Made by a program: the position numbers and the translations under genes. A stretch of 32,000 bases of DNA from Promethearchaeum syntrophicum (GTDB taxonomy: Archaea; Asgardarchaeota; Lokiarchaeia; Sigyniarchaeales; Promethearchaeaceae). Where the stretch lies: positions 1,980,001-2,012,000 of the forward strand of contig NZ_CP042905.2 in NCBI RefSeq assembly GCF_008000775.2. The letters run 5' to 3'. Positions 4,644-32,000 of the stretch are shown here, in pieces. How positions within the stretch are numbered: the stretch's first letter is position 1; every line of letters starts with the position of its first letter. The notes under the pieces are model-generated. The model ran no database searches. It had not been told where the DNA came from and saw only the letters and a program-made list of their open reading frames with translations.

Positions 4644-7600
4644 TTAAATATCTGGCATCAAATTAAGGAGGGTGGCAATAACTTCTCCCATTTCAGTTAG
4701 GGAATTCCCTTCATTTATTAATTCCTTTGAAAGTAGCGAAGTTATAATTGGCACAACAATTGCAATTTTAGTATTTTTCTTAAGGTGTTTTTCGCTTAGT
4801 GGACCACTCTTATATAATTCTTTTAGAACTAATCTTTCACTATGGGTTAAAGGATCAATCATAGGTTTAAATTGTTCGATGAGATATTGTGTTCGAGGAT
4901 TCACCGCAAATAGAACTTGTTCTTGTCTTAATTTTTCAATCACATTAAAGGTATCTACTTCTTTCCTACCATAACCGGCCATTCTCACTATCATTTCTCG
5001 TAAACGGAATGCATTATTAAAAGATGATTCAGCTTCTTTTATAACTAGCGCAGTTGTAGATTTCTTTTTAACATTGCTTAAATGACTCTTAGCTTTTGAA
5101 GGGATTACATTATGTGGATAAAGCAAATATGCAAATAGAGTCTTTTCAATTAATTCCAAAATCGGCTCAGGACTGGGGATTTGTCCAGAGAAATGTTCTA
5201 CTGTGGACAAATATTTTGTCTCAAATTCGGCATTAAATTGTCTAATTTTGGAGCGTAAAGTAGGACTTGCTGATTTTAATAATAAAACAGCTGTTCTGAC
5301 ATAATATCCTTCAATTACAACAATTTTAAATTGCTGGTAGGATAATTCTTCAAGACCTGTTTTTTTATCACCTATCGCAGCAAATGCGTTCTGTTGAGAA
5401 TCTTCTACCCTATTTCCAATTTCTTTTCCAAAAGTTGATATTGCTGATAAAAATCCACTAATTAATGTTGAATCAATAGGCAATTCAGTGAAAGTTTGTG
5501 AAAATATGCTGGTGCTTGTTTCTTTATGCATAATTAATACATATTGCATATTTTCGATATCTCCAAATCTTCGATGGATATCCAGTAATGCTTTTCTTTG
5601 TCGATTTCGCTTAGGAACTACATAACCTCTATAAATCCCTGCAGAAAGAATTACTACTACCCCAATCCCAATTAAAATTGCTTGAATATTATCAATTATT
5701 AAAATTCCATAGTTTACCACTCTTACTTCATAGTCAATATCTGTATCAGAAGAACTTACACCCGCAAAAATCCCTGATGTCACGAAAACAATTTCTACAG
5801 TAAATTCACCAGTATCATCAAATTGAATTGTTTTTTCAGCAATTCCTTCCTGATTAGTCACCGCTGTATATTGTGATTGAATAATCGAATCACTATCCTT
5901 GACAATAAAAAGGATATTTTTCCCTTCAATACTTACATTGAAATCGTCAGTGAGTCTAACAGAAAAAGCAAATTCACCCGCAAATTTTTGCTGCAAATTA
6001 TTAGATAACATAATCAAGTGCGTAACCATTTGGGGTAAAATTGTAAAATTCATATAAATGACATCACCTGCAATTTTATCTGTCCCTGTGAATATAATTG
6101 TGATGTTTAGCCAAGTACCAGAATCTAAAGAAATTGTATACGGAACCAAAATACTAGCGTTTTCATCAAAGAATCCAGTATAAACTTCATTATCACTATC
6201 ATAATCATATATTACTTCAAATGGTAAACCATAAAAAGTCTCGTTAGTTGATGATGAAACGAAATTTGCAGATATATTCAACTGAATCTCTTGACCCATT
6301 GTAAGAGTATCTGCCAACTCGGTAACATTTAGAACTACATCCCATTTTGGTAACACATCAAAGGTTTTCTCCACACTTGCATACTCTACTGTAGATGTTC
6401 CGGCATAATCCATGAAAAATGTAATATTATCATGGCCATCTGCAATATTAGCTAAATAATAGCTTAACGAACCATTTTGATCTACTGCAATCTGCTGAAT
6501 AAATGTTGGATTAAGAAAATTTCCATCGTACCAAGAGATTAAAGTTAAATAAATCCCAGAATATTGTGTGACGTCTGTAATATTTATTGTTCCATCAATA
6601 GTTATATCATAACCAACTCGTTCTTCGGATGTGTAAATTAAAGATAATGAAACAGGGATTTTTCCCAATATTGTTTTTATTGTGGAATTTAAGGAACCCT
6701 TAACAGTACTATTTCCATAGTAAGTTACGTTTATTTCGATCGAGTCATCTGCGTAATTATAGGGGACGATTTGTGAAAAAGTCGCTATTCCATTTGAATC
6801 TGTTGTTTCTACAATATTGAAAATATCTGTACTTGCATAGGTTATGGTGATAAAAAGATCTGAATCAGGAATTGATGAACCATTAATCATCATTAAATTG
6901 AATTGAATATCTAATGATGAACCTATCCGAATATTCTCAGGCACATTTAAATAGATTTTGGTTGAATTCTTGGAAAATATTTCTAATCCAATTTGAATCC
7001 ACGAAGCATTTGCACAATTATATTTTGAAGCGTTGACCATAAAATCATAAATACCCGGTAGAACATATTCAGTTTCAGTTTCTAAAACGATCTCTGTATG
7101 ATAAACTCCTGAAAAGATGAATGAAAAATTCCCAGATAATGCAATTGAACTATTACTTGCATATATTAATGCCCAAGTTAGATTCGCATCATTTAACGGT
7201 AAAGGGTTAGATTGATCGAGAACATTTCGATAATTCGCATAAAATTCAAAATTTCCTCCTTCATATAACTCCACACTAATACTTGTTGCATCAATATCAG
7301 TCAGAATTGGAAGAATTTCCGTTGATATTTCAATGTAAGTTGAATCATAACCATCAACTGAAGCAGATATAGTAAGGGTATAATTGTATTGTCCAGAATC
7401 CGTAGCATTTAATCCAGTTGCGTCTATGGTGATATTATAGAGACCTTTATCTACAATATTTTGTGTTTCTCGATATACTTCAATGCCATAAAAAACATTT
7501 TCGCTTCCATTGAATTTACCTGATATTATTGCATTTTCCAGTGGGAATTGGTTTGTATGATTTGTTATATTAACCTGAATAATTGAACGCGAAGCATCAT

Positions 7601-10505
7601 TTACATAAGGTATGTTATACGAATCCATATAAGCAGAAAAAATGCTTGTATTTGTTGCCCCGTAAGTAATATTTAAATTAATAGGATATCCAGTCAAGTT
7701 TATCCATGAATTCAACCTTTGATAATCGAAGAACGGTTTTCTTATCATTATATACACTTCATAATCATCAACAGGGACGGAACGCGTTTTAAAGCTAAGA
7801 GTATAATTACCTTCTGCATTTAAAGAGGGGTCTTCATAAACTCTATCAATTAAATATACATAAGGTGGCCAATCAGTCCCCCATGTATTATTTGTTGCAT
7901 TATTATAAATTCTAACATAATTTTCAGCAAAAGATAAAGGTGTGCCATCAGATTGTGAAAAACTAAAATAAAATTCACCCAGATCTCCCGAATTAATTAT
8001 ACCTGGTTCGCTTTTTAATGTAGCAATAGAAGTCCGCCACATTTCAAAATATGTCGTTCTAACACCAATTCGTAATGTTTGAGATGTGCTAGCGTTTGTA
8101 TCATTCCACATTCCAATTATTTGATAATTACCAACACCCATTGAGTCATTTACTATCCATGGGGTAGTTAAATTATCCGATTCGGATGGAAAATATTTTG
8201 GAAAATTATTTAACCATGCACCTGAAGCATTTCTAATACTTATATTATAATGTCCTTCATCGGGGCTAGTTTGGTTTGCGATGATGTTTGTGTTATTAAG
8301 ATTATAGAATCTAGGGGATATTCCAGACAGATGTTCAATTTTCAAATTACTTAAATAATTTGGAGAGGTAAAAGATGCTATCCAAGTTCCATTAATATAT
8401 GATCCTTCATCTTGGGGGCTCTCTGCCGTTGCATCAGCAATAGTAAGATTTTGATAATGTCCAGAATTTGCTGTTCCGTTTGTACGGATCCCTTGAGCAT
8501 AATTTGGATTACGCCTTCCTAATGGGTCCCATCCACCAGTCCAATTCCAATCTACTGAATTTTTTCCTAAATTATCCCAAGCTGGAAGATCATTTATTGT
8601 AAAATTATATCCAATGGGATTATAATTTTCTAGTAAAAAAATATCAATTAACAATTGATCAAAGGTAATTGAATTGTTGAAGGTTACATTCCATTGAATT
8701 CTGTAGATAGGCTCGTCATCAATATCATTAACAAAGTAACTTGCTTCTGCCTTATTCTCATTCAATTTGTTTATATACATTAAACTCTCAAATTCTAGTG
8801 TTGATCCGTTATAATCTGGATTGGTAACTTGAAATGCTAATATAAACTCATTTTTAATATCATCATACGGATCTTTTGTAGTTATTTCAAATTCCGTTTG
8901 AGAATTCCAATCGGTTCCATTATATCGCTGAAATCCTGCGGTTGCTAAATTATCCACTTTATAAATGGGTTTTAATGAAATATTGTCAAACATTACAAGA
9001 AAATCATCTTTATAAGTTTTAAATGGGTTTAAATTAATTATCCCAATTGCAGAACTAATCGTATCGTTTGAATTTAGAATATTTTTAAAACGGGAAGTCA
9101 AATTATATTGGAAGTTAACTGTTTGTTCCACAGATCCAGATGTAAAATCATCATTTAACCAACTTAGGGGGTAGAAAATTTCTTCACTTGTCCCTGAGTC
9201 TCCAAGAAATGCAAATAACAACCAATAATTCAAATCCGTGGATGTTTTGAAATCTTTTACAGAACATTCAAAACTTAATTCTCCGATTTTATACTGATCT
9301 TCTTCAACTGCCCTGATAGCTATTAAATCAAAAATAACCCTAACCTCGTCATCAGTTTCGTCAATATTTTCCATCCAAATCCCAAAATTTAGGGAATGAT
9401 CAACCAAATTTGAATTTATTATATCAGTTATATCAAAAATCCGATATATAAAATCATGTGTTCCAATTTTAGAAGTTTCATTATCATATTCAATAGTTGT
9501 GGCTGAGGCATTACTGTTTGGGACTCCATTGGTATCTACTCTACCATCAACATAGTTTCCATCAACCTGACAAATCACTGCGAAATTATCACCTTCTTCA
9601 TATCCAAGGTTTTCTACTCTCCACCCCACAATTAACTCTACTTTTTTTGGTAAAAATGAAGTTTCCCACCCAAAATTTGTTTCCCATGCAATAGAGGGAT
9701 TTCCTAAAGTGTATTGGCTAGTTCCTGCTTTAATATAAGCACCTAAATTACCAACATTCCATTGAAGATCAACAGTAGCGGTCTCGGTTACACCTCCATA
9801 AGGGTTGTCGTAATTTTTTCCCCATTCCGGATCTTCATTGAATTCTTCCCATATTGGATGTTGTGTATCCCCATTATAGATAAAGTCGGTTTCCCATATA
9901 GAATGATCATCGCTAGGTTTTGATATTTCTTGAGTCCATTCTGAATATGCTTGATAGGGAACTAGAGGATTTTCAGGTTCCCCAATACCCTCAATAACTA
10001 ATTTTTCATTGGAGATATAATTGTTAAAACCAAAACTAGAATCACTATCTTTTGGATAATTTGTAACTGCAGTCCATGGGTCTCCGATAGTAATATTGTT
10101 ATCATTTAATAATTCATGAGATTTATATAAGGCTGAGATATTAAGATGCTCTTGTTCAAAAATCCATCCTTCTGGAACTTCAAGAGTCATATTTTCATTA
10201 TCAATATCTAGAATTGATTTTTGACCATGTTGCTGATCAATGAATGGTGCTTGACTAATAATCGATTCTGAAACATTAAATTGAGAAACATTATTACCAA
10301 TAATTGTAATTGGTTCAATAATTGGCGCAATTTCTTCCTGTGTTTGTGGTGAATATGTCAAATCTTGTTCCTCTGAAACCAAATCATTTTCGGAAATATT
10401 CTGAATATTTCCCATATTTGTATAAATGTTCAATGGCAAGAAACAAAATAGAAACATGAAAACGTTTAATATTTTCATGAATTGCTTTATCTTTTTATTT
10501 TTCAT
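4644..10505 (-). CDS. Giant (1953 aa) type-I single-pass surface protein: signal peptide, a roughly 1570-aa glycoprotein-like ectodomain, one TM helix and a 328-aa cytoplasmic tail
   Basis: An uninterrupted 5.9-kb ORF. The N-terminal signal peptide is MKNKKIKQFMKILNVFMFLFCFLPL. I hand-count about 60 N-x-S/T sequons. Beta-sandwich-like modules recur with a T(D/N)xxG signature (TTDSNGIATFSQ, AVDQNGSLSYY, VTNQEGIAEKTIQF). The TM helix ILIIDNIQAILIGIGVVVILSAGIY is followed by RGYVVPKRNRQRK. Confidence 0.85.
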   Translation of the reverse strand: MKNKKIKQFMKILNVFMFLFCFLPLNIYTNMGNIQNISENDLVSEEQDLTYSPQTQEEIAPIIEPITIIGNNVSQFNVSESIISQAPFIDQQHGQKSILDIDNENMTLEVPEGWIFEQEHLNISALYKSHELLNDNNITIGDPWTAVTNYPKDSDSSFGFNNYISNEKLVIEGIGEPENPLVPYQAYSEWTQEISKPSDDHSIWETDFIYNGDTQHPIWEEFNEDPEWGKNYDNPYGGVTETATVDLQWNVGNLGAYIKAGTSQYTLGNPSIAWETNFGWETSFLPKKVELIVGWRVENLGYEEGDNFAVICQVDGNYVDGRVDTNGVPNSNASATTIEYDNETSKIGTHDFIYRIFDITDIINSNLVDHSLNFGIWMENIDETDDEVRVIFDLIAIRAVEEDQYKIGELSFECSVKDFKTSTDLNYWLLFAFLGDSGTSEEIFYPLSWLNDDFTSGSVEQTVNFQYNLTSRFKNILNSNDTISSAIGIINLNPFKTYKDDFLVMFDNISLKPIYKVDNLATAGFQRYNGTDWNSQTEFEITTKDPYDDIKNEFILAFQVTNPDYNGSTLEFESLMYINKLNENKAEASYFVNDIDDEPIYRIQWNVTFNNSITFDQLLIDIFLLENYNPIGYNFTINDLPAWDNLGKNSVDWNWTGGWDPLGRRNPNYAQGIRTNGTANSGHYQNLTIADATAESPQDEGSYINGTWIASFTSPNYLSNLKIEHLSGISPRFYNLNNTNIIANQTSPDEGHYNISIRNASGAWLNNFPKYFPSESDNLTTPWIVNDSMGVGNYQIIGMWNDTNASTSQTLRIGVRTTYFEMWRTSIATLKSEPGIINSGDLGEFYFSFSQSDGTPLSFAENYVRIYNNATNNTWGTDWPPYVYLIDRVYEDPSLNAEGNYTLSFKTRSVPVDDYEVYIMIRKPFFDYQRLNSWINLTGYPINLNITYGATNTSIFSAYMDSYNIPYVNDASRSIIQVNITNHTNQFPLENAIISGKFNGSENVFYGIEVYRETQNIVDKGLYNITIDATGLNATDSGQYNYTLTISASVDGYDSTYIEISTEILPILTDIDATSISVELYEGGNFEFYANYRNVLDQSNPLPLNDANLTWALIYASNSSIALSGNFSFIFSGVYHTEIVLETETEYVLPGIYDFMVNASKYNCANASWIQIGLEIFSKNSTKIYLNVPENIRIGSSLDIQFNLMMINGSSIPDSDLFITITYASTDIFNIVETTDSNGIATFSQIVPYNYADDSIEINVTYYGNSTVKGSLNSTIKTILGKIPVSLSLIYTSEERVGYDITIDGTINITDVTQYSGIYLTLISWYDGNFLNPTFIQQIAVDQNGSLSYYLANIADGHDNITFFMDYAGTSTVEYASVEKTFDVLPKWDVVLNVTELADTLTMGQEIQLNISANFVSSSTNETFYGLPFEVIYDYDSDNEVYTGFFDENASILVPYTISLDSGTWLNITIIFTGTDKIAGDVIYMNFTILPQMVTHLIMLSNNLQQKFAGEFAFSVRLTDDFNVSIEGKNILFIVKDSDSIIQSQYTAVTNQEGIAEKTIQFDDTGEFTVEIVFVTSGIFAGVSSSDTDIDYEVRVVNYGILIIDNIQAILIGIGVVVILSAGIYRGYVVPKRNRQRKALLDIHRRFGDIENMQYVLIMHKETSTSIFSQTFTELPIDSTLISGFLSAISTFGKEIGNRVEDSQQNAFAAIGDKKTGLEELSYQQFKIVVIEGYYVRTAVLLLKSASPTLRSKIRQFNAEFETKYLSTVEHFSGQIPSPEPILELIEKTLFAYLLYPHNVIPSKAKSHLSNVKKKSTTALVIKEAESSFNNAFRLREMIVRMAGYGRKEVDTFNVIEKLRQEQVLFAVNPRTQYLIEQFKPMIDPLTHSERLVLKELYKSGPLSEKHLKKNTKIAIVVPIITSLLSKELINEGNSLTEMGEVIATLLNLMPDI
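4647..4850 (-). other. C-terminal winged helix-turn-helix-like module of the giant protein
   Basis: LTHSERLVLKELYKSGPLSEKHLKKNTKIAIVVPIITSLLSKELINEG follows the MarR/ArsR-type wHTH pattern LTxxExxVLxxLxxxGPLSxxxL. An earlier stretch, FRLREMIVRMAGYGRKEVDTFNVIEKLRQEQVLFAVNP, may be a second winged helix. Confidence 0.45.
5190..5549 (-). other. Longin/roadblock-like alpha-beta sandwich domain in the cytoplasmic tail of the giant protein
   Basis: The pattern is beta-beta-alpha-beta-beta-alpha: YVLIMHKETS, SIFSQTF, STLISGFLSAISTFGKEIG, LSYQQFKIVVIEG, YVRTAVLLLK, PTLRSKIRQFNAEFETKY. It aligns by eye with the standalone ORF at 26873-27292. Confidence 0.5.
5631..5705 (-). other. Single transmembrane helix of the giant protein
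   Basis: A 25-residue hydrophobic stretch (residues about 1601-1625) with a cluster of Arg/Lys on its C-terminal side, which by the positive-inside rule places the tail in the cytoplasm. I checked the codon mapping against the sequence: AGA for Arg1626 is tct at 5628-5630. Confidence 0.7.
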
Positions 10506-23459: not shown

Positions 23460-24401
23460 CTATTTAGAATTATTCTTATTATTATTCCCATTATTACTCT
23501 TATTGGGAATTTCTTCTGATTTCTCAAAATTAAATAGATCTTCCAAGATTTTTTGATTTAACCCTAAGAGATTAGAAATTTCATCGCGAAATTCAGTAAG
23601 ATTGTCTACGTCTGTTTGAATTGATTTATATTTTTTATTCATTTCCTCAATATTTTTCTTTTTTTTCTCATATTCGCTATTTAAATTGTCGATGAAACCA
23701 CTAAATTTATCTAAAACCTGTTCATTGTATTTCATTATATTGTTTTTTAACAAAAACTGACTGCTGAAATTATCAAAGGTTCCTAATAATTCTTTAATTA
23801 ATGAGCCCATCGAAATGATAGTATCTTGTTTTTTATTGATTTCCCGCTTAAATAATTTGAATTTAACTTCCAAATCTTCATATTCGTTTTCCAATGAACT
23901 CTTTTTTTGCTCTAAATCTTCAATCTCTTCGCTTAGATTCGAGATATTTGTCCTTTGTATCTGTAGTTGTTCGTTTAAAACAGTAATCTCATTTTCTTTT
24001 TTTTCTAGAAGATTGTTTGCATGAGATACTTCAGATTTTTTTATTTCTATGCTATTTTTTACTGCTTTTCGCTCAGCTTGTAAGCTTTCCAGTTTTTTAC
24101 TTGTAGTTTTTTCTTCTTCCTTATTTTTTTTGATTGATGCATTCAATTGTTTGACTGTTTTTTTTAATTTTTGTTTTTCTGTTCTTAGTTCCTCTATATC
24201 ATTTGATTTTTCTTTTACCAGCTCATTTAGAACAATTAAATCGGTTTCTCGTTTTGAGTATTCTTTTTTTGATGAAGCTATTTTTTCTTCAAATTCTTTC
24301 TCTCTTATTTGAAGGGCATTAATTGTGAATTTTTTATCTCTAATTTCTTGAATATCGGAAGAATCGCCTTCAGTATCATCAATAGTAGTCTTTTCACTCA
24401 T
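23460..24401 (-). CDS. Coiled-coil protein (acidic head, long K/E-rich heptad rod, Asn-rich tail), function unknown
   Basis: 313-aa ORF. There is a continuous heptad-like K/E/L/I pattern over about 250 aa. The head is MSEKTTIDDTEGDSSDIQE and the tail is NKSNNGNNNKNNSK. It lies 25 nt upstream of the kinase gene on the same strand. Confidence 0.65.
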   Translation of the reverse strand: MSEKTTIDDTEGDSSDIQEIRDKKFTINALQIREKEFEEKIASSKKEYSKRETDLIVLNELVKEKSNDIEELRTEKQKLKKTVKQLNASIKKNKEEEKTTSKKLESLQAERKAVKNSIEIKKSEVSHANNLLEKKENEITVLNEQLQIQRTNISNLSEEIEDLEQKKSSLENEYEDLEVKFKLFKREINKKQDTIISMGSLIKELLGTFDNFSSQFLLKNNIMKYNEQVLDKFSGFIDNLNSEYEKKKKNIEEMNKKYKSIQTDVDNLTEFRDEISNLLGLNQKILEDLFNFEKSEEIPNKSNNGNNNKNNSK

Positions 24402-24506
24402 GTTTCTATTTCCTTGATATATCTATAGGACATTTATTTCATCATAAAAATAAACTTTATTATCTTAACTATTTTTTACAAAGTATTAATTTTTATCATC
24501 CTTTTA

Positions 24507-24526
24507 AAAATCTAAATTTAGATTTT
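24507..24526. promoter_or_regulatory. Perfect 20-bp palindrome in a divergent promoter region, candidate operator
   Basis: aaaatctaaatttagatttt is its own reverse complement (10/10 pairs checked by hand). It ends 27 nt upstream of the ATG at 24553 and sits in the 151-bp divergent intergenic region. Confidence 0.3.
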
Positions 24527-24552
24527 AAATTTAATCAAATACAGGGATTATT

Positions 24553-24987
24553 ATGAATTGGAAAACAACTTTAATCAAAAGTTTAGTCTATCGAGTAATC
24601 ACAATTACTTTAGGTTTATTAACTGCATTTATCATAACCGGAGATTTTGAGACAGCCTTAGGTTTATCTTTAATAACAGAATCCATTCAATCGCTTAATT
24701 ATTTTGGTTTTGAATCACTATGGGGCTATTTTTATGAAAAACGTATTAGAGAAGATATTAAAAAGGAGTTTAGAAAAAGAGAAATTGATTTGAAAGTATC
24801 AATCGAAATGATAATAGATATTACAAAAGGATTCTCAGAAGTGGATACCTTTAATCCAAAAATTTACAATTCCTTAATCAATTTTTTTGATAGCTCCATA
24901 ACTAATCGAAATTTAAAGGATTTTAATTCAGAATTAATAGAAGCAAAAAAAAATTTCGTTGCTTTAAATCAAGGAAGAGATTTTTAA
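24553..24987 (+). CDS. DUF2061-like membrane protein with a C-terminal soluble extension
   Basis: LIKSLVYRVITITLGLLTAFIITGDFETALGLSLITESIQSLNYFGFESLW resembles the two-helix DUF2061 consensus (KxxxYRxxxxxxxxxxxxxxTG...YxxHExxW). Confidence 0.6.
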   Translation: MNWKTTLIKSLVYRVITITLGLLTAFIITGDFETALGLSLITESIQSLNYFGFESLWGYFYEKRIREDIKKEFRKREIDLKVSIEMIIDITKGFSEVDTFNPKIYNSLINFFDSSITNRNLKDFNSELIEAKKNFVALNQGRDF

Positions 24988-25021: not shown

Positions 25022-25246
25022 TTAATCGGAGGCAGTTATTACTAATAGAATAATCCCAAAAATTATTCCCCCTCCCCCTATCCAAAAACAAACGGTAGTA
25101 AATGTCTGAATTGCGGCGGGAAGTGGATCATAAATCATATGTAGCGAAGAATTGCTCCAAAATGATAAAAGTAGCCATGTCAAAGATCCAACAAACAAAT
25201 ATATTACATGTTCTAATTCTAGCTCCCAATCCCAGATGTTGGTCAT
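25022..25246 (-). CDS. Small two-TM membrane protein (74 aa), hypothetical
   Basis: Two hydrophobic helices (VIYLFVGSLTWLLLSFW and FWIGGGGIIFGIILLVI). It lies 65 nt downstream of, and on the same strand as, the dolichol-kinase-like gene. No homology recognised. Confidence 0.4.
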   Translation of the reverse strand: MTNIWDWELELEHVIYLFVGSLTWLLLSFWSNSSLHMIYDPLPAAIQTFTTVCFWIGGGGIIFGIILLVITASD

Positions 25247-25311: not shown

Positions 25312-26520
25312 TTAAATATGGATTAATGGACTATAAGGAATTCCCAAAGCGGTTAAAAGAACGAAAACTAAGGAAATCATTATCGGCATTAAAATATTAT
25401 CTGAAATCTCTAAGGGTTTTGGCGTAATTAAATCAGAAAGGACAAAAACAACTATACTGCCAACTAACGCATATATCCACCCTACAAAAATAATCATTGT
25501 TCCGAAGGCAATTATCATTCCTGCAATAGTGCCTTCAATCGATTTCCCATTCCAAAAATATCTCCTATGTCCAAATTTCATCCCAATTATACTTGCTATC
25601 GGGTCTGCGAAGGATCCTAAGCACATTGCAGCTAAAAACGGAAATGGAGGTAAAATCCATGCGGCTATAAAGTAGCCCGTTGCAAAATGTGTGTAGGATC
25701 CAAACGTATTCTTTTCCTTTTCGCGCATGATTGACTGTACTTTTTTTTGAAATAGAAAAAATATATGACCCGATAATCGGGTAAGCTCGATAGTGAACAT
25801 AAATATAACCATACCATACATAAATATGATTATCGTGCTTTGTCCCATAGGGGGTGTTTTTCTTATAAAAATATTTTCAATGAAGCTGGTTCCATCTGTG
25901 TATTCAAAATAACCCTCTAAAAGTTGTTGATAATGTTCAACCCATAAGTCTCCGTTAACTTGCGTAACTAAATATTGTCTTATTGCAAATAAAATAGAAA
26001 TAACTAAAATAAAAACAAACACATGCCAAAATTTCCGTCTGTAATCGATTTTTTGCTTAATTTCTCCTGAAATTTCAAGCGTATTCACAACAGGCTCTCT
26101 AATAATTTCGACTTTTTTTGCACCCCGAGAGTATTGGATAATATTCACAATAATCCCAATAAGAAGATAGGACACAGGAATTGCAGATAAAATAATAGCC
26201 GGATGATCTTGTTTCCTGAGAGTCCATTGAAATCCAACCCGAATATAAATTAGAAAAATAACAATGATAAGAATAATGGCCATAATTACTAAATTTAAAG
26301 GTTCACCATAAGTAGATTCAAAACCATGATTTGTCTTCGTTTTTTCTCTATTCTTAAAATTAATAATCATAGATTGAATCCCTTTTGTCAATAATGCAAT
26401 AAAAGTTATCAATAATGAACTATAAACAATAATCTGCATAAAAACAACAATTAAGACTGCCATAATTCCACCTATTAAAAAATTGAACAATTTAAATTGA
26501 AAATACTTTTTATAAATCAT
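25312..26520 (-). CDS. Polytopic membrane protein with a C-terminal dolichol/polyprenol-kinase-like domain (CTP-dependent, Sec59/VTE5/CdsA superfamily)
   Basis: SFADPIASIIGMKFGHRRYFWNGKSIEGTIAGMIIAFG matches the DxxAxxxGxxFGxxK...KSxEGS motif block of that superfamily. There are about 10 hydrophobic helices. Confidence 0.55.
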   Translation of the reverse strand: MIYKKYFQFKLFNFLIGGIMAVLIVVFMQIIVYSSLLITFIALLTKGIQSMIINFKNREKTKTNHGFESTYGEPLNLVIMAIILIIVIFLIYIRVGFQWTLRKQDHPAIILSAIPVSYLLIGIIVNIIQYSRGAKKVEIIREPVVNTLEISGEIKQKIDYRRKFWHVFVFILVISILFAIRQYLVTQVNGDLWVEHYQQLLEGYFEYTDGTSFIENIFIRKTPPMGQSTIIIFMYGMVIFMFTIELTRLSGHIFFLFQKKVQSIMREKEKNTFGSYTHFATGYFIAAWILPPFPFLAAMCLGSFADPIASIIGMKFGHRRYFWNGKSIEGTIAGMIIAFGTMIIFVGWIYALVGSIVVFVLSDLITPKPLEISDNILMPIMISLVFVLLTALGIPYSPLIHI

Positions 26521-26573
26521 AATATTTTTTATAAATCATAAATATTTTCATAAGTATATAGGAGAAAGTAAAG

Positions 26574-26861
26574 ATGACTGAAGAAAATGAGAAAAATTCT
26601 CTGGAAAAATTAAATAAAGCTTTTTTAGATTTTACTGAAAGTGTGTTCGGAGAATCTGGACGTGAATTCATAGAAAAAACCCAAACCCAAGTAAATGAAT
26701 TTAATGTTGCAGCTATTAAGGCTTTTGTTGAATTTGGAGATCAAATTCTTGAAAATACTCAATTAGGTGAAAATGAAATGGTCCAAAAATCGTCTAATAC
26801 CGTTAAAGATCTATTACGACAATATAATCTGTTAGAAGAAGAATCTGAAGAAGATTTTTAA
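26574..26861 (+). CDS. Small acidic helical protein (95 aa), hypothetical
   Basis: ATG-started ORF 53 nt from the divergent neighbour, with a strongly acidic C-terminus (LLEEESEEDF). No motif recognised. Confidence 0.45.
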   Translation: MTEENEKNSLEKLNKAFLDFTESVFGESGREFIEKTQTQVNEFNVAAIKAFVEFGDQILENTQLGENEMVQKSSNTVKDLLRQYNLLEEESEEDF

Positions 26862-26872
26862 AAAAAAATTAA

Positions 26873-27292
26873 TTACCATCCTTTTAAGTCATTAAATTTA
26901 AGCTCAATGATACGATCTATCATTTTGCCAAGCTGTTGGGTTTCGGGTGCTCGATCTTTAAATGATTGTTTTGCTTCCATGAATATTGTTGTAGCCAGCT
27001 GTCGTAATTGCTTCATTTTCTGTTCTCCATGATAGAAAAACACAAAGAATATCTGTTTTTTTATTGAAAAAAATTCCTTGGATATGACAATAATTTTGCT
27101 TGTATTTTTGGGTTGAACATTTTCTCCAAAAGTAATGGTTGCTATATCCTGTCTGAATAGAGTTTTTCCTATGGTCCCTACCGCGGATAGTAATCCACTT
27201 AATAGAGCTGCATCTATCCCCTCAAAATCGAATTCTCGGGAATAGAAGGGAATCCCCGAATCATCACTTATTAACAAACACTTTAATGGCAT
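26873..27292 (-). CDS. Standalone longin/roadblock-like domain protein (139 aa)
   Basis: The protein begins directly with a beta-strand: CLLISDDSGI, PFYSREF, helix DAALLSGLLSAVGTIGKTLF, strands IATITFG, KIIVISKEF, IFFVFFYHG, then C-terminal helices. This is a longin-type order. It is paralogous by eye to the tail domain of the giant protein. Confidence 0.55.
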   Translation of the reverse strand: MPLKCLLISDDSGIPFYSREFDFEGIDAALLSGLLSAVGTIGKTLFRQDIATITFGENVQPKNTSKIIVISKEFFSIKKQIFFVFFYHGEQKMKQLRQLATTIFMEAKQSFKDRAPETQQLGKMIDRIIELKFNDLKGW

Positions 27293-27497
27293 TTTTGTAT
27301 GTCTTCTTTTTATTATGTGTATTAAAATTGGTTTCCTTATTTTTAAATTTATTACTATAGTATAGTGTTTTACTTAATTGCCTAAATATACTCCTATCTT
27401 TTTTGAACTCTCGAATAAGTGTGGGTTAACTCGACAAAATTGAACTTCATAATTTAACCCATAATTATTTATACATTATTGTTTATTATTCTCTCTA

Positions 27498-28526
27498 ATG
27501 ACATTTAATTCTAACACCGCTTATCTTCAAAATTGGGAAAACTTCTCTTTACTTGGTAACTTGATGAAAAAATACTCCTTAGCAAGCTTGATTTCAATAG
27601 GAGTATCTATTATCGGTAGTATTATCACTTTCATTGTATTTTTAATACCAATGATTGCAATTGATTACGATTCAGTTGATGCCATCTATGCAGCCACAAT
27701 AGGAATGGGTGGAGTCGCCATATTTTTTACTGCAATTGTTGGTTTAATTTCAATTTATCGGTTTGTAACGCATATCCAATTTCTAATACAATTAAAGAAT
27801 GCAAGTCAATCTACAGGAGATTTAAACCTAAATAAAGTTTATAAAATGGATTTATGGTCAATCATTGCTTCAGGATTGACCCTTCTTATAATGATAATTG
27901 GTGTAATTATCCTTTCTTTTCTAATAACTTCGATAGGTGATATGGACCCTTATTCAGCTATGAGTCTCTACTTTTTATCTCTCTTGGGATTTTTATTTGT
28001 AATATTAATTGCTTTTGCTATAACAATAGTTTTTCAAATCCTATCCGTTGTTGCTTTCGAAAAATGGGGTCAAAATATTAAAGCAACCAACTTTCGGAAC
28101 CGGAATGCAATAAATCTTGTAGACGGAATCAATTTCATGAAATTTGGTAAAATTATCTTAATTGCTGCAGCTCCAATTTCAATTATTTTTTCATATATGG
28201 GCATTATTGCTTTTTTGGGTGGAACGGTTATGTTTCAAATCGGTGTCATGAAAACAGGTAAAAACATTGTTGAGTTTTTTGATGGATACGGAAATTACAT
28301 TTCAACTCAAGGTACTGCGTCTCCACAAATCTCAAATATAAACACTATACAACAACCCATGGAAACGAGACCTAATCCTACCTTAAACCCTAATTCTTTT
28401 GGAAATCCATCATCAGGAAACACAACTATAAAACCACAAGCCCAAGAATTCTGTCCATTTTGCGGTTCAACAGTAGAAGATAGAAATACCATATTCTGTG
28501 CAAACTGCGGGAGGAAATTGGTTTAA
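27498..28526 (+). CDS. Polytopic membrane protein with a P/N/S/T-rich linker and a C-terminal zinc ribbon
   Basis: About 6 hydrophobic helices, then a linker ASPQISNINTIQQPMETRPNPTLNPNSFGNPSSGNTT, then CPFCGSTVEDRNTIFCANCGRKL (CxxC-x11-CxxC). Confidence 0.7.
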   Translation: MTFNSNTAYLQNWENFSLLGNLMKKYSLASLISIGVSIIGSIITFIVFLIPMIAIDYDSVDAIYAATIGMGGVAIFFTAIVGLISIYRFVTHIQFLIQLKNASQSTGDLNLNKVYKMDLWSIIASGLTLLIMIIGVIILSFLITSIGDMDPYSAMSLYFLSLLGFLFVILIAFAITIVFQILSVVAFEKWGQNIKATNFRNRNAINLVDGINFMKFGKIILIAAAPISIIFSYMGIIAFLGGTVMFQIGVMKTGKNIVEFFDGYGNYISTQGTASPQISNINTIQQPMETRPNPTLNPNSFGNPSSGNTTIKPQAQEFCPFCGSTVEDRNTIFCANCGRKLV

Positions 28527-28578
28527 TCTTTTTTTTTTTATATTTTTTATATCGAGAACTTTTTATGGTAGAGTTAAA

Positions 28579-29808
28579 ATGGGTCGAAATTATAATTATA
28601 GGAACACAATTCAGAATATTTTCCAAGAGAAAAACCTACAAAGGATAATTTTAGATATTCTTGATGAATTATTTAAAATAACCAAGACGGAAATGCCAGA
28701 ATTCTTAGGAAAGAAATATTGGAATTCAGTGTTAAAATTCAACATATCGCGAGAAAAAGATATCCCAAAAGGACTACATTTCGAAATAAATATAAACGCC
28801 CGTAAAAAACTGGGGGATCAAAAATATAATCTAATAATTGCCCAAATCCAACCCTTTGCAGAAAAACTCATGGAAAATTTACCAACAATTACTAATATTC
28901 AATCATGTGTGAATATCACACCCGCTTTAAATTTTACACCAAATCTAAAATCCTTAAAGATAAATTTTTGCCCAACTTTATCAGAAATTCCACCTAATAT
29001 CGAGTTATTGTCCAATCTGCAGACTTTATTTATTTCATGTTGCCCGAAATTTTTAAATTTACCCGATTGCCTTCCAAATCTGCCAGAATTAAACACAATC
29101 ATTTTGGAAGATCTACCAAAACTTATTTCTCTTCCCTCATCACTGGCACAAATCCCAAAACTATCTCTTATTCAAATATATGAGTGTAATAATCTTCAAT
29201 CCCTTCCCTCATCACTATCAAAAATCCCGTGGCTTAAATTGAATATGAATTATTGCGATCACTTCAAATTTGCTTATGATTTCCCAAAATCACTATGGAA
29301 TTCAATTCACATCAAATATTGTCACTCTGAGGAAACTTATTTATCTCCCGAATACGCTAAATTTAGAACAGATATAGAGACTTTTAGAGATAGTTGTGAA
29401 CGAGGTCGACCTTTACATAATGATGAACGGGATCAGAAATTATCTTGGCAAAAAGTCGAATTGTGGCTTCCAAATATTCCCTCATCAGCATTTGAAGAAC
29501 TCAAATATTGCATTGCCTACATAGTTCAAGTTCTTGGAGATGAAATACATCCCCCCAATTCAGGTCAATTAAGGGGTACATATCCCAATTATTGGAAAGA
29601 TTTCCTACCTAATATTTCATTTTTCGATGAAGATTTCTGGAAAAAACATGGTTATATGTCTCAATCTGTAATTCAAATGCTCGAAAATTGGGTAATTTAT
29701 TATCGATCCAGACCTAAATTGCAGCATTTTTTAATGAATATTATATCTGAAGAAAGAGGATTTTTTAATGTTCATATTAATGACCGCAATATAAATCTGT
29801 TAAAATAA
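28579..29808 (+). CDS. Leucine-rich-repeat protein (Cys-containing LRR type) with an unknown C-terminal domain of about 170 aa
   Basis: LRRs lie at about 28876-29329: LKSLKINFCPTLSEIPPNIELLSNLQTLFISCCPKFLNLPDCLPNLPELNTIILEDLPKLISLPSSLAQIPKLSLIQIYECNNLQSLPSSL. The ATG at 28579 (MGRNYNY) is preferred; the track start at 28498 lies inside the previous gene and a poly-T tract. Confidence 0.75.
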   Translation: MGRNYNYRNTIQNIFQEKNLQRIILDILDELFKITKTEMPEFLGKKYWNSVLKFNISREKDIPKGLHFEININARKKLGDQKYNLIIAQIQPFAEKLMENLPTITNIQSCVNITPALNFTPNLKSLKINFCPTLSEIPPNIELLSNLQTLFISCCPKFLNLPDCLPNLPELNTIILEDLPKLISLPSSLAQIPKLSLIQIYECNNLQSLPSSLSKIPWLKLNMNYCDHFKFAYDFPKSLWNSIHIKYCHSEETYLSPEYAKFRTDIETFRDSCERGRPLHNDERDQKLSWQKVELWLPNIPSSAFEELKYCIAYIVQVLGDEIHPPNSGQLRGTYPNYWKDFLPNISFFDEDFWKKHGYMSQSVIQMLENWVIYYRSRPKLQHFLMNIISEERGFFNVHINDRNINLLK

Positions 29809-29993
29809 AGTTTGACATTCATGATATGTTCCCGCCGATGGGATGCAACTCCTTGGGATTTGTAAAAGCGTTTTTTGTTCTTCTTGGATCATCGCTAATT
29901 TTTGGATGGTCAATTTTTTTATTTTCCAATTCTATTAGTTTATTAAATTAGTTAGAAATAAATATATAATAAAATCAAAATGGCGGGATAAAA

Positions 29994-31133
29994 ATGAGTC
30001 AAATCTTAAATGAAAATGATAGGAAGACGTTGAATTCTCTCGGTTCTCCCGTTTCTTCTCAAGAAATTAAGGAAGACAACTTATATTTAAGCTATTATAT
30101 TGAGAACGGGGATGTAGATACAATTATTCTTTGGGGCACATTTGTAAAACCCAACACTGCTTTCGGACATTTTCAATTAAGAGGTAGAAAAAAGCCCAAC
30201 CATATTCGTTTAACATCTTATGATAACACTGAAATACTAAAATTATTAACATGTTTCCATCATTTGGGCTCTCTTCATTTCTTTTTTTTCTTCGAATCAA
30301 CAGACTCACTTGAACTAATTGGAAATCTTAAATATCTTAGGAAATTATCGATCACAAACGATAATTCAATAAAATTACCCAATTCTTTAGAAAAACTTTC
30401 TAATCTCACTGATTTGGCAATTACAATTACAGAAAAGCCTTTTCCTTTTTCGGATTCACTAAAAAATCTCCAGAATCTTGAGAAATTTCATATCGGCACC
30501 GATCTCAAAAAATTTCCAGAATTCGTTTTGAATTTTAAAAAATTAAAATCCCTAAGCTTAGCATCAAATTCATTACTTTATATTCCTCCTTCCATAGGTG
30601 ATCTCCGAAATCTCCAAAAATTGAACTTATACAATAATAAAATATCATCGCTCCCACACACTATCGAAAACTTGCAGAATCTCACTCACATTAACATCGC
30701 ACGGAATAATTTTACCACAATTCCCGAATATATTAAAAACCTAAAAAATCTCAAATCGATCGATATAGACAAAAATCCGTTTGTTTCTCTTGAATCATTT
30801 AAATTTCTTTATTCCAATCGTAAATTAATTATAAATGGTAAACAGTCCATCGGTAGTCTCAATATTCCAAAAAAGATAAAAAATTTGTGGTTTGATGGAA
30901 AATATGATGAAATAATGCAATATTATACCCCTCCCATTACTGAAATAGCTCAAAAATATGCTCAAGATCCTAAATCTCTCACTGGTCTTGAATTTGAACG
31001 TCTGGAAACTGAAGCTACGAACGAGGTGCGCGATATTTTAGAACTATCCTTGCCTAAAGACGACTCAATGTTAAAAATTATAAATGATAAATTAAAATTT
31101 GGCTTAAGAAATGGCCTAAAATTAATGAGATGA
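29994..31133 (+). CDS. Leucine-rich-repeat protein (typical 23-residue LxxLxLxxNxLxxLPxxI repeats, ROCO/Shoc2-like LRR class)
   Basis: LRRs lie at about 30306-30789: LKSLSLASNSLLYIPPSIGDLRNLQKLNLYNNKISSLPHTIENLQNLTHINIARNNFTTIPEYIKNLKNLKSIDIDKNPF. Confidence 0.85.
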   Translation: MSQILNENDRKTLNSLGSPVSSQEIKEDNLYLSYYIENGDVDTIILWGTFVKPNTAFGHFQLRGRKKPNHIRLTSYDNTEILKLLTCFHHLGSLHFFFFFESTDSLELIGNLKYLRKLSITNDNSIKLPNSLEKLSNLTDLAITITEKPFPFSDSLKNLQNLEKFHIGTDLKKFPEFVLNFKKLKSLSLASNSLLYIPPSIGDLRNLQKLNLYNNKISSLPHTIENLQNLTHINIARNNFTTIPEYIKNLKNLKSIDIDKNPFVSLESFKFLYSNRKLIINGKQSIGSLNIPKKIKNLWFDGKYDEIMQYYTPPITEIAQKYAQDPKSLTGLEFERLETEATNEVRDILELSLPKDDSMLKIINDKLKFGLRNGLKLMR

Positions 31134-31163
31134 CTACTACTAAAATCTTTCAAAATAATTAAC

Positions 31164-31186
31164 AAAAAAAAAAAATTTAAAAAACT
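31164..31186 (-). terminator. Oligo-T tract (T12 on the minus strand) downstream of the SCP2-like gene
   Basis: The plus strand has an A12 run at 31164-31175 followed by tttaaaaaa, about 25 nt beyond the minus-strand stop at 31201-31203. Confidence 0.4.
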
Positions 31187-31200
31187 AATATTGCTGGAAC

Positions 31201-31719
31201 TTAATCTACTTCGCGTTCAATATAATCAAAGAAATCATAAATCCATGCCCGAGGTTTCGAGGCTAACTTCAAACTACCGTCAACCTTGCAATCTCCACTG
31301 AAGAACTCTGCGTCTGTGTTTGGATTACCTTTCATTATTTTTAATTGACAGGCAGGGGTCCAATCCATCCAGATTACATGCTTAACTGGTTGAACCGCTG
31401 CTGGATCATATGTTCCTGTATACATTGCGAGTTTTTGTTCTTCCGGAGTGAATTTAAGGATAAATTTCTTTTCACTACCCCGAACTTCAATAAAATAAGC
31501 AAGAGATTCATATTCTTCGAGATCACTTTCTAAATTTTCCCAATATTCCTGTTTATCTTCATCATCTGATTTTTTAGATGCAAGTGCTGCACCTACAATA
31601 GCTTTGAAGAATACTTCGGCATCTAAAGTCCCGTCGAATGTTCCGGTATCGAATTTTTTCACATATTCATCGATAGCGCTTATCATTTCTTCTGGTGTAA
31701 ACCATTTAGTAATTTCCAT
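31201..31719 (-). CDS. SCP2 (sterol-carrier-protein-2)-like lipid-binding fold protein, tentative
   Basis: The C-terminal block VIWMDWTPACQLKIMKGNPNTDAEFFSGDCKVDGSLKLASKPRAWIYDFF resembles the SCP2 consensus end (..f..l..Gklnp..Af..GklkieGd..la.kl..lf). Confidence 0.45.
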   Translation of the reverse strand: MEITKWFTPEEMISAIDEYVKKFDTGTFDGTLDAEVFFKAIVGAALASKKSDDEDKQEYWENLESDLEEYESLAYFIEVRGSEKKFILKFTPEEQKLAMYTGTYDPAAVQPVKHVIWMDWTPACQLKIMKGNPNTDAEFFSGDCKVDGSLKLASKPRAWIYDFFDYIEREVD

Positions 31720-31874
31720 TTTTTAAGATCACCTTGTAATAAAATAGATTTTAACCTATTTAGGTTGTTTGAAAAATATGCGGTAGCGTATAAAAAGCTT
31801 TTTTTCAGAATCCCATAGGAAAGAGTAAAAAGTTTAAAATATCGAGAAAGGGTAGAAAAAAAATCTAGAATGAA

Positions 31875-32000
31875 ATTAGAGATCGATTAAACCTTTCGAA
31901 ATCATACCATTTATCATATCATCGAATATTTTATCGATATTTTTACCAATTCGTGCTGAAGTTTCAAGATATCCGATATTAAGTTCATTTGCAAGGCTTA
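31875..32000 (-). CDS. 3' end of a Ras-superfamily small GTPase (G5 ETSA box), cut by the window and possibly frameshifted
   Basis: The minus-strand translation is NFNIGYLETSARIGKNIDKIFDDMINGMISKGLIDL*, with the stop at 31875-31877. It matches the (I/L)ETSAK-x-G-x-N(V/I)-xx-xF region of Ras/Rab/Arf-like GTPases. There is no C-terminal Cys (no prenylation box). In this frame a TAA sits at 31998-32000. This ORF is not in the supplied track because it is under 60 aa. Confidence 0.55.

Follow-up and report, generated by a model that had tools for sequence, protein, structure and literature searches.

A 5.4-kb stretch of the genome of Promethearchaeum syntrophicum MK-D1, carrying genes for a longin-fold protein and an SCP2-fold protein and the 3' end of a small GTPase gene, overlaps a gene block that is kept across Lokiarchaeia. 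MK-D1 was the first Asgard archaeon in culture. The stretch lies at the right end of the window, that is, the whole 32,000 nucleotides analysed (NZ_CP042905.2, positions 1,980,001 to 2,012,000), which has a uniform G+C content of ~31% and whose products match DSAG12_02373 to DSAG12_02381 exactly. The reading preferred here is that the 5.4 kb form a composite of three layers: a putative lipid-handling core of Lokiarchaeia-wide distribution with a longin adaptor, genes added within the genus, and a plastic hot-spot with bystander genes for leucine-rich repeat (LRR) proteins. The layers themselves are shown by gene order; the functional side is drawn from fold, family and synteny, and the reading as a whole stands, in our judgement, evenly balanced between right and wrong.

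An initial annotation of the window had joined seven genes of this stretch in one GTPase/membrane unit. All seven open reading frames (ORFs) were found on the strands it gave, with coordinates right to within one base. Two genes to the left, encoding a kinase-family enzyme and a small transmembrane (TM) protein, fell outside its range and make up the leftward part of the conserved block. The nine genes, with their lengths in amino acids (aa) and isoelectric points (pI) where relevant, are as follows:

25022–25246, minus strand: DSAG12_02373, acidic small TM protein (ORF of 74 aa, pI 4.15) with a C-terminal TM segment at residues 48-74
25312–26520 (likely start 26463), minus strand: DSAG12_02374, polytopic membrane protein assigned through relatives and motifs to the CTP_transf_1 / polyprenol (dolichol, phytol) kinase superfamily
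26574–26861, plus strand: DSAG12_02375, acidic protein (ORF of 95 aa, pI 4.2), as annotated initially
26873–27292, minus strand: DSAG12_02376, standalone protein of 139 aa with a predicted longin fold (AlphaFold2 model and Foldseek)
27498–28526, plus strand: DSAG12_02377, polytopic membrane protein of 342 aa with hydrophobic segments and a C-terminal CxxC-x11-CxxC zinc-ribbon motif
28579–29808, plus strand: DSAG12_02378, LRR1, 409 aa; the ATG start agrees with NCBI QEE16548.1
29994–31133, plus strand: DSAG12_02379, LRR2, 379 aa (Pfam LRR_14, LRR_8)
31201–31719, minus strand: DSAG12_02380, acidic single-domain protein of 172 aa with a predicted SCP2 fold (AlphaFold2 model and PF02036 matches of relatives)
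31876–32000, minus strand: DSAG12_02381 (WP_147663426.1), 3' end of a 346-aa longin plus Rab-like GTPase (Pfam Ras, 19.7 bits on the fragment)

Sequence-only annotation (Pfam, NCBIfam, and phmmer and hmmsearch against the PDB) gave nothing usable for the MK-D1 proteins of 139, 172 and 402 aa. Because these sequences are themselves uninformative, folds and families were taken from AlphaFold2 (AF2) models compared by Foldseek and from relatives. Gene order was followed in 31 related loci (L numbers below) from assemblies, GTDB genomes and metagenomes, onto which the window proteins were mapped by tblastn; a metagenome scan with the longin alignment yielded only six short contigs, which gave adjacency data without long context. 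A literature search by locus tag and accession found no study of these genes beyond a listing of the GTPase, and the published supplementary text searched held no expression values for them.

A gene block conserved across Lokiarchaeia

Outside Promethearchaeum, the SCP2 and longin genes are immediate, divergent neighbours in L002 and L023 (both of the Lokiarchaeum ossiferum lineage), L004, L007, L008, L017, L027, L018 (Harpocratesius repetitus) and L028. In all these loci the acidic gene converges on the longin gene. Wherever the contig extends that far, a kinase-family membrane gene of ~380 aa diverges from the acidic gene and is followed by a TM gene of ~73 aa. The order shared across Lokiarchaeia is SCP2, longin, acidic protein, kinase-family membrane enzyme and small TM protein, with core proteins ~45-63% identical outside the genus (tblastn) and flanking genes that vary by lineage. 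In Promethearchaeum the block is split by variable inserts, both LRR genes among them. Conservation of the neighbourhood is therefore real for the longin-SCP2 linkage, whereas the order of the seven genes taken together by the initial annotation is not conserved.

Behind the kinase-family gene, an orthologue of the small TM gene is present in L004, L005, L007, L008, L014, L017, L018, L023, L027, L031 and L032. All related loci that have the acidic gene place it beside the longin gene; in the L. ossiferum lineage, one extra small ORF of 106-108 aa lies between the two (L002 6305-6625, L023 8944-9270). The L002 ORF matches ArfGap at 16.5 bits against a cut-off of 28.7 (E 0.009), and its L023 equivalent lacks the cysteines for a zinc finger; the identity was rejected and the match is probably noise. 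No mention of the five-gene block was found in the literature searched, and its description here is a modest novelty, the component families being known.

Folds and families of the core proteins

DSAG12_02376 belongs, by its predicted fold, to the longin superfamily. The AF2 model, built from a 20-sequence alignment, is of moderate confidence (predicted local distance difference test, pLDDT, 67; predicted template modelling score, pTM, 0.67) and has the topology beta-beta-alpha-beta-beta-beta-alpha-alpha. Its Foldseek matches in the PDB are zeta-COP (5mc7, E 8e-5), the N-terminal domains of AP sigma and mu subunits, TRAPP longins, Sec22b and SRX, at template modelling (TM) scores of 0.5-0.6, with AP sigma subunits at ~0.6. 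The Mon1/Ccz1 and GATOR1 platforms are also among the structural neighbours, with LAMTOR, MglB and the Lokiarchaeal longin 8yqg further down the ranking. No sequence-profile match was obtained with the query in Pfam or NCBIfam, with 20 aligned relatives in Pfam, or with the family profile against the PDB. The UniRef label "Roadblock/LAMTOR2 domain" appears correct at superfamily level only, because the topology of the model is that of a longin and not of a roadblock protein; of the "longin/roadblock-like" protein annotated initially, the longin half is retained and the roadblock half is not. The family is confined to Lokiarchaeia: 43 homologues were found, and all those with a source name are from Promethearchaeota. 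An AT-rich promoter-like motif 5' of the longin gene is common to different genera. The neighbouring acidic protein, DSAG12_02375, has no Pfam family above threshold and is probably helical.

The SCP2-like call for DSAG12_02380 was borne out. The AF2 model (pLDDT 96.3, pTM 0.91) has SCP2-domain structures as all of its top 20 PDB matches (SCP2, UbiJ-SCP2, AF1534), of 31 family members, 22 match PF02036 at E<=0.1 (the best at 1.6e-5), and the family profile searched against the PDB places SCP2 first (E 0.05). By this predicted fold, DSAG12_02380 is a candidate lipid binder. A 2025 preprint (PMC12139934) reports a single SCP-2 homologue in MK-D1 and leaves it uncharacterised; it gives no accession, and DSAG12_02380 is presumably the protein meant. 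The rule of one SCP2 protein per genome fails outside MK-D1, since one Promethearchaeota metagenome-assembled genome (MAG) has the gene in tandem duplicate (L019 9684-10879) and L. ossiferum has two copies (L016, L023), only the L023 copy adjoining a longin gene.

For DSAG12_02374, assignment to the superfamily of CTP-dependent polyprenol/diacylglycerol kinases comes through its 740 homologues at E<=1e-3. PF01148 (CTP_transf_1) is matched by 10 of 32 aligned homologues (best E 2.4e-7), three of them above the 24-bit cut-off. The family consensus, F-D-x2-AS-x2-G-x-RFGKHK...KSxEGTIAG...SDNLLxP, has motifs that are invariant or near-invariant in the alignment and lie in the C-terminal ~170 aa; we take them to be typical of dolichol and phytol kinases. 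The NCBI name for the 383-aa version of the protein is "diacylglycerol/polyprenol kinase family protein". This shorter version, starting at 26463, is likely the true one (383 aa rather than 402 aa). It is favoured by a tandem 19-nt repeat, TTTTTATAAATCATAA(T/A)AT, at 26504-26548, between the kinase-family and acidic genes, which the 402-aa ORF would include in its 5' end. The repeat has the look of divergent promoters whose TATA-like elements were duplicated. In L009/L022, the kinase-family gene overlaps at its 3' end with a convergent gene for a 178-aa Ras/Roc-type GTPase, at the position usually held by the small TM gene.

What might such a block do? The conserved core could handle the isoprenoid lipids of the membrane. 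The kinase-family enzyme would phosphorylate or activate a polyprenol-type lipid in the membrane, whose hydrophobic substrate or product form would be bound or shuttled by the soluble SCP2 protein. Probably dimeric, as other longin platforms are, the longin protein would anchor or control this lipid handling at the membrane. It may act via one of the many longin-fused GTPases, either the adjacent Rab-like protein of LG type (in Promethearchaeum) or, in other genera, a Rag-like protein of LGR type encoded ~3.5 kb away. In this reading LRR proteins are bystanders. It is also conceivable, if unlikely, that the block is a working unit of lipid transfer and lipid phosphorylation, in which the longin protein couples the soluble carrier to the membrane enzyme under the control of a longin-fused GTPase; if so, the block would be a forerunner, in a prokaryote, of membrane lipid transport governed by GTPases.

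Several observations count against a lipid-handling core. The MK-D1 proteins themselves give no direct family match: DSAG12_02380 has none in Pfam, so that its membership rests on relatives and structure, DSAG12_02374 has no Pfam, NCBIfam or PDB sequence match and is placed by its relatives, and the longin model is only moderately confident (pLDDT 67). Some SCP2 homologues lie outside the block (L009/L022, L010/11, L016, L019-L021), and a more distant Promethearchaeota MAG keeps the acidic/kinase-family pair without a detectable longin gene (L009/L022 15545-17661). The five core genes alternate strands and are therefore not an operon, and three of the four junctions have each received insertions in some lineage: Promethearchaeum has them between the SCP2 and longin genes, L. 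ossiferum between the acidic and kinase-family genes, and L004 between the kinase-family and TM genes. Finally, genes for POR, MOFRL and PolB also stay nearby in several lineages, which means that Lokiarchaeial gene order is partly kept without a functional link.

These last points feed a serious rival, namely that the genes are functionally unrelated and that the adjacency of the core is residual regional synteny, a mixture of coincidence and inherited gene order. The alternating strands, the tolerated insertions and the persistence of housekeeping neighbours across genera are all compatible with it, as is the abundance of the gene families concerned. MK-D1 has 74 small GTPases in 4.32 Mb, from which we calculate a chance of ~16% that a GTPase lies within 5 kb on either side of any gene; the proximity of the GTPase to the block is suggestive at most. 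Longin/roadblock and LRR genes are likewise abundant in this genome, so that the clustering by itself is not beyond chance. Across Asgard archaea, 130 clusters of orthologous genes (asCOGs) of the Roadblock/longin superfamily have been reported, and most genes for eukaryotic signature proteins (ESPs) lie outside conserved neighbourhoods (Liu et al., 2021). However, at least six lineages keep four consecutive adjacencies, with protein identities of ~45-63% and differing flanks, the short divergent gaps (~110 nt between the kinase-family and acidic genes, ~270-470 nt between the SCP2 and longin genes) would suit shared regulation, and the SCP2 and polyprenol-kinase families point independently to lipids. 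Coincidence with inherited order keeps a sizeable, though minority, share of the probability.

The GTPase and the variable hot-spot

The initial annotation had identified the gene and strand of the Ras-superfamily GTPase correctly, and had placed its 3' end at 31875, 155 nt from the SCP2 gene; with the stop codon at 31878-31876, the fragment spans 31876-32000 and the gap is 156 nt. The fragment ends in ELNIGYLETSARIGKNIDKIFDDMINGMISKGLIDL (the same end is also given as ETSARIGKNIDKIFDDMINGMISKGLIDL) before the stop. Extending the window, as had been suggested, recovered the complete gene on L001, a 3.9-kb Logan contig identical to this region. Its product of 346 aa comprises an N-terminal domain of ~170 aa and a Rab-like G domain with the motifs GDPGVGKT (G1), DLAGQ (G3), NKCD (G4) and SAR (G5), including the switch II glutamine, and matches TIGR00231 at 91.6 bits (cut-off 42.5). 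The protein ends ~20 aa past the G5 motif; its C-terminus (...MISKGLIDL) has no Cys prenylation motif as in eukaryotic Rabs. The N-terminal domain profile matches PDB 8yqg, "Longin domain" (E 0.005). WP_147663426.1 is listed as an "LG" architecture in the Rab-like alignment group (Tran et al., 2024, Commun Biol 7:273, supplement) and tabled as a Rab-type ESP, cd00154 (Imachi et al., 2020). More than 260 homologues of the same architecture were found in Lokiarchaeia and other Asgard lineages.

An RsmB-type methyltransferase gene stands upstream of the GTPase gene. The GTPase-SCP2 adjacency is found only within Promethearchaeum, where the gap ranges from 124 to 264 nt among congeners, and even there L031 has it interrupted and L032 lacks it. 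An oligo-T run comes after the GTPase stop and TATA-like AT-rich elements come before the SCP2 start, and the two genes are probably separate transcription units. In L005 (4650-8078) the LG GTPase occurs in tandem copies of 355 and 348 aa (71% and 81% identical to that of MK-D1), with an unannotated 355-aa gene between them. Outside the genus there is no adjacent GTPase gene. L004, L007, L008 and L018 have a 469-aa GTPase of longin-Rag/Arf-roadblock type (LGR) 3-4 kb beyond SCP2, 21-22% identical to the MK-D1 GTPase over the full length; no GTPase gene was found on the 12-kb contig L002, nor up to 10 kb from SCP2 in L023.

Could the longin protein be a GTPase regulator and nothing else? It might form a heterodimeric platform with the longin domain of the LG GTPase, or with a different one of the 74 GTPases, and act as guanine nucleotide exchange factor (GEF) or GTPase-activating protein (GAP) in the manner of TRAPP, Mon1-Ccz1 or FLCN-FNIP, with the SCP2 and kinase-family genes unrelated to it. 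The predicted longin fold and structural neighbours such as TRAPP, Mon1/Ccz1, GATOR1, LAMTOR and MglB would fit, as would the presence of a longin-fused GTPase gene within ~5 kb in Promethearchaeum and of a different one within ~4 kb in L004, L007, L008 and L018. In addition, AF2 predicts that LG proteins dimerise via their longin domains (Tran et al., 2024, supplement). However, the two nearby GTPases belong to different families (~21-22% identity), neither L023 (up to 10 kb from SCP2) nor the 12-kb contig L002 revealed a GTPase gene, and the best structural matches of the longin protein are longins of sigma-adaptin/zeta-COP type, not GEFs or GAPs. Its family also shows no profile similarity to the GTPase's longin domain (hhalign probability 0.5%), and the idea that it is a recent paralogue of that domain was rejected on the same comparison. 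A role confined to GTPase regulation is quite improbable on this balance.

The genus additions of the composite reading are the LG GTPase gene, upstream of SCP2, and the gene for DSAG12_02377, next to the longin gene; the hot-spot lies between the latter and the SCP2 gene. DSAG12_02377 has ~5-6 hydrophobic segments, a low-complexity linker and, as annotated initially, the C-terminal zinc ribbon; the Pfam Zn_Ribbon_1 match is sub-threshold (21.6 bits against 25). It is 38-51% identical in L005, L014, L024, L025, L030, L031 and L032, against 73-96% for the genes beside it, and tblastn detected no homologue in L002, L004, L007, L017, L018 or L023. The gene is genus-restricted, fast-evolving and sometimes duplicated.

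The two LRR proteins are of different classes, as had been claimed. LRR2 is clear (LRR_14, 68.7 bits against 40; LRR_8, 62.7 bits against 27; repeats LxxLxLxxNxLxxLP). LRR1 is borderline (LRR_R13L1-DRL21, 26.7 bits against a cut-off of 27) and has Cys-containing repeats resembling plant RPS2 and R13L1, matches to the LRR regions of the NCBIfam XopL/XopAC models (E 1e-9 to 3e-11) and an uncharacterised C-terminal half. With 24% identity (E = 0.02), the two are not recent duplicates. An LRR1 orthologue was found only in L032, a congeneric MAG (79% identical), inverted and beside a giant 8409-aa gene; it is absent from L005/6, L014, L030 and L031. No relative has an intact LRR2 orthologue at the syntenic position, and L014 retains only a 45-aa remnant of its 3' end, directly after the SCP2 gene. 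The site between the SCP2 and Zn-ribbon genes, which holds LRR2 and LRR1 in MK-D1, is plastic within the genus:

L005/L006: empty; only the Zn-ribbon gene lies between SCP2 and longin
L030: a 141-aa ORF and the Zn-ribbon gene
L014, 2500-6747: LRR2 remnant, a 1022-aa gene without family match, a toxin-antitoxin pair, PIN-like (183 aa)/ribbon-helix-helix (RHH)-like (107 aa), and the Zn-ribbon gene
L031: DUF285 between GTPase and SCP2; CitMHS next to the longin gene
L032, 1-6521: giant gene (the 8409-aa call runs off the locus), inverted LRR1, a toxin-antitoxin pair (PIN-like/107-aa) and two tandem Zn-ribbon paralogues; no SCP2 or GTPase gene within 10 kb

Because this content differs between Promethearchaeum genomes, the LRR genes are variable cargo and not parts of a module, and the content of L014 is evidence for gene replacement at the site. 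Poly-T and poly-A stretches of 42 nt (28530-28571 and 31134-31175, 71% complementary) flank the LRR1-LRR2 segment exactly. A search for transposon boundaries returned only these low-complexity "inverted repeats", which were not taken as evidence; the stretches may represent oligo-T terminators instead of scars left by an insertion.

The proposal that the seven genes form a split ROCO-like or MglA/MglB-like unit, with LRR and longin proteins regulating the Rab-like GTPase and the Zn-ribbon and SCP2 proteins as effectors, is largely refuted by this synteny. Several facts had made it attractive. All the named domains are genuinely present, with LRR, Ras-superfamily GTPase and roadblock-superfamily folds within 5 kb; the GTPase's own longin domain shows that longin and GTPase are coupled in this lineage; and an LRR gene lies inside the block in L004, as an LRR1 orthologue does near it in L032. 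Yet the LRR genes are missing from the syntenic position in L005/6, L030 and L031 and outside the genus (the L004 gene is unrelated), loss of LRR2 is visible in L014, and the Zn-ribbon gene and the GTPase-SCP2 adjacency are restricted to the genus. ROCO proteins (LRR-Roc-COR) are defined by a COR domain directly after the Roc domain, and the ROCO reading fails on it: no COR family was matched in Pfam and NCBIfam scans of the region's proteins or in the Pfam list of the GTPase family. Moreover, the LRR genes and the GTPase gene are not linked by conservation and lie separately on opposite strands, and the GTPase is already fused to a longin domain of its own. MglA/MglB is an analogy only, and one that is not supported: the GTPase is Rab-like and not MglA-like, and the longin model starts with a beta-strand from residue 3 and ends in two helices, without the N-terminal helix of roadblock/MglB proteins. 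Nor is the arrangement an operon, since four genes and 4.6 kb separate the GTPase gene from the longin gene; as a rule, MK-D1 GTPase genes are not in operons with roadblock (RB) or longin genes (Tran et al., 2024, Commun Biol 7:273). The genes run on both strands, with AT-rich gaps of 150-200 nt, in several transcription units, and the caveat in the initial annotation that the clustering might be coincidental was sound. We regard the seven-gene unit as very unlikely, and the lead of a "split ROCO" is removed, the LRR genes being strain-level cargo.

Elsewhere in the window, a 313-aa coiled-coil protein (with weak TMF, ATG16 and ZapB-like coiled-coil matches only) and a 144-aa DUF2061 membrane protein are encoded at 23460-24987, between the small TM gene and an AAA_15-like gene. 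By tblastn they occur in none of the fetched loci, the congeneric L005, L014, L031 and L032 included, and the pair looks like another MK-D1-specific insertion. A giant 1953-aa ORF on the minus strand (4644-10505), with only a sub-threshold Big_1 Ig-like match, probably encodes a surface protein; beside it, at 2595-4562, lies a gene for a beta-helix/NosD-like protein.

Comparison with known systems

Asgard archaea have dozens of longin, roadblock and small-GTPase proteins, and according to published analyses these are almost never found in informative neighbourhoods, so that there is no way to assign regulators to their targets. A longin protein kept across genera beside the apparently sole SCP2-type protein of MK-D1 and a kinase-family enzyme offers a small and concrete set of proteins. 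MK-D1 and L. ossiferum are both in culture, which makes the block directly testable.

Each component has known counterparts. The predicted longin protein shares its topology, at TM scores of 0.5-0.6, with the eukaryotic longin platforms (sigma-adaptins/zeta-COP, TRAPPC1/C4, Sec22b, SRX, Mon1-Ccz1) and with 8yqg. Differently to those platforms, it is standalone, has no Pfam longin membership, and has no SNARE, adaptor or TRAPP partners nearby. DSAG12_02381 is itself a published member, in the Rab-like group, of the Asgard LG fusions, an architecture widespread in Loki-, Hel-, Hermod- and Sigynarchaeia (Liu et al., 2021; Tran et al., 2024); all that is added here is its place beside the SCP2 gene in Promethearchaeum, on which those papers are silent. 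Compared with SCP2/lipid-transfer proteins (PF02036; UbiJ-SCP2, Archaeoglobus AF1534), DSAG12_02380 has the complete alpha/beta fold in its model, and its C-terminal G-x-P-N-T-D-A-x-F-F-x-G-x-x-x-V-x-G motif region aligns to that of SCP2, but it is longer (172 versus ~120 aa), strongly acidic and sub-threshold in Pfam. Sterols are not expected in this archaeon. DSAG12_02374 has the D-x2-A-x3-G...K-S-x-E-G...D-N motifs of the dolichol kinase/phytol kinase/CdsA-CarS superfamily (PF01148), to which it adds a polytopic N-terminal region of ~200 aa.

As a neighbourhood, the block can be set beside those already described for Asgard ESPs, the ESCRT cluster and an operon of LAMTOR1-like protein, Rab-like GTPase and DENN protein (Liu et al., 2021). 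Like them, it places a roadblock-superfamily protein in a conserved gene neighbourhood. Its partners are different, namely an SCP2 protein, an acidic protein and an enzyme of the polyprenol kinase family; it is found in Lokiarchaeia only, and its genes are not co-directional.

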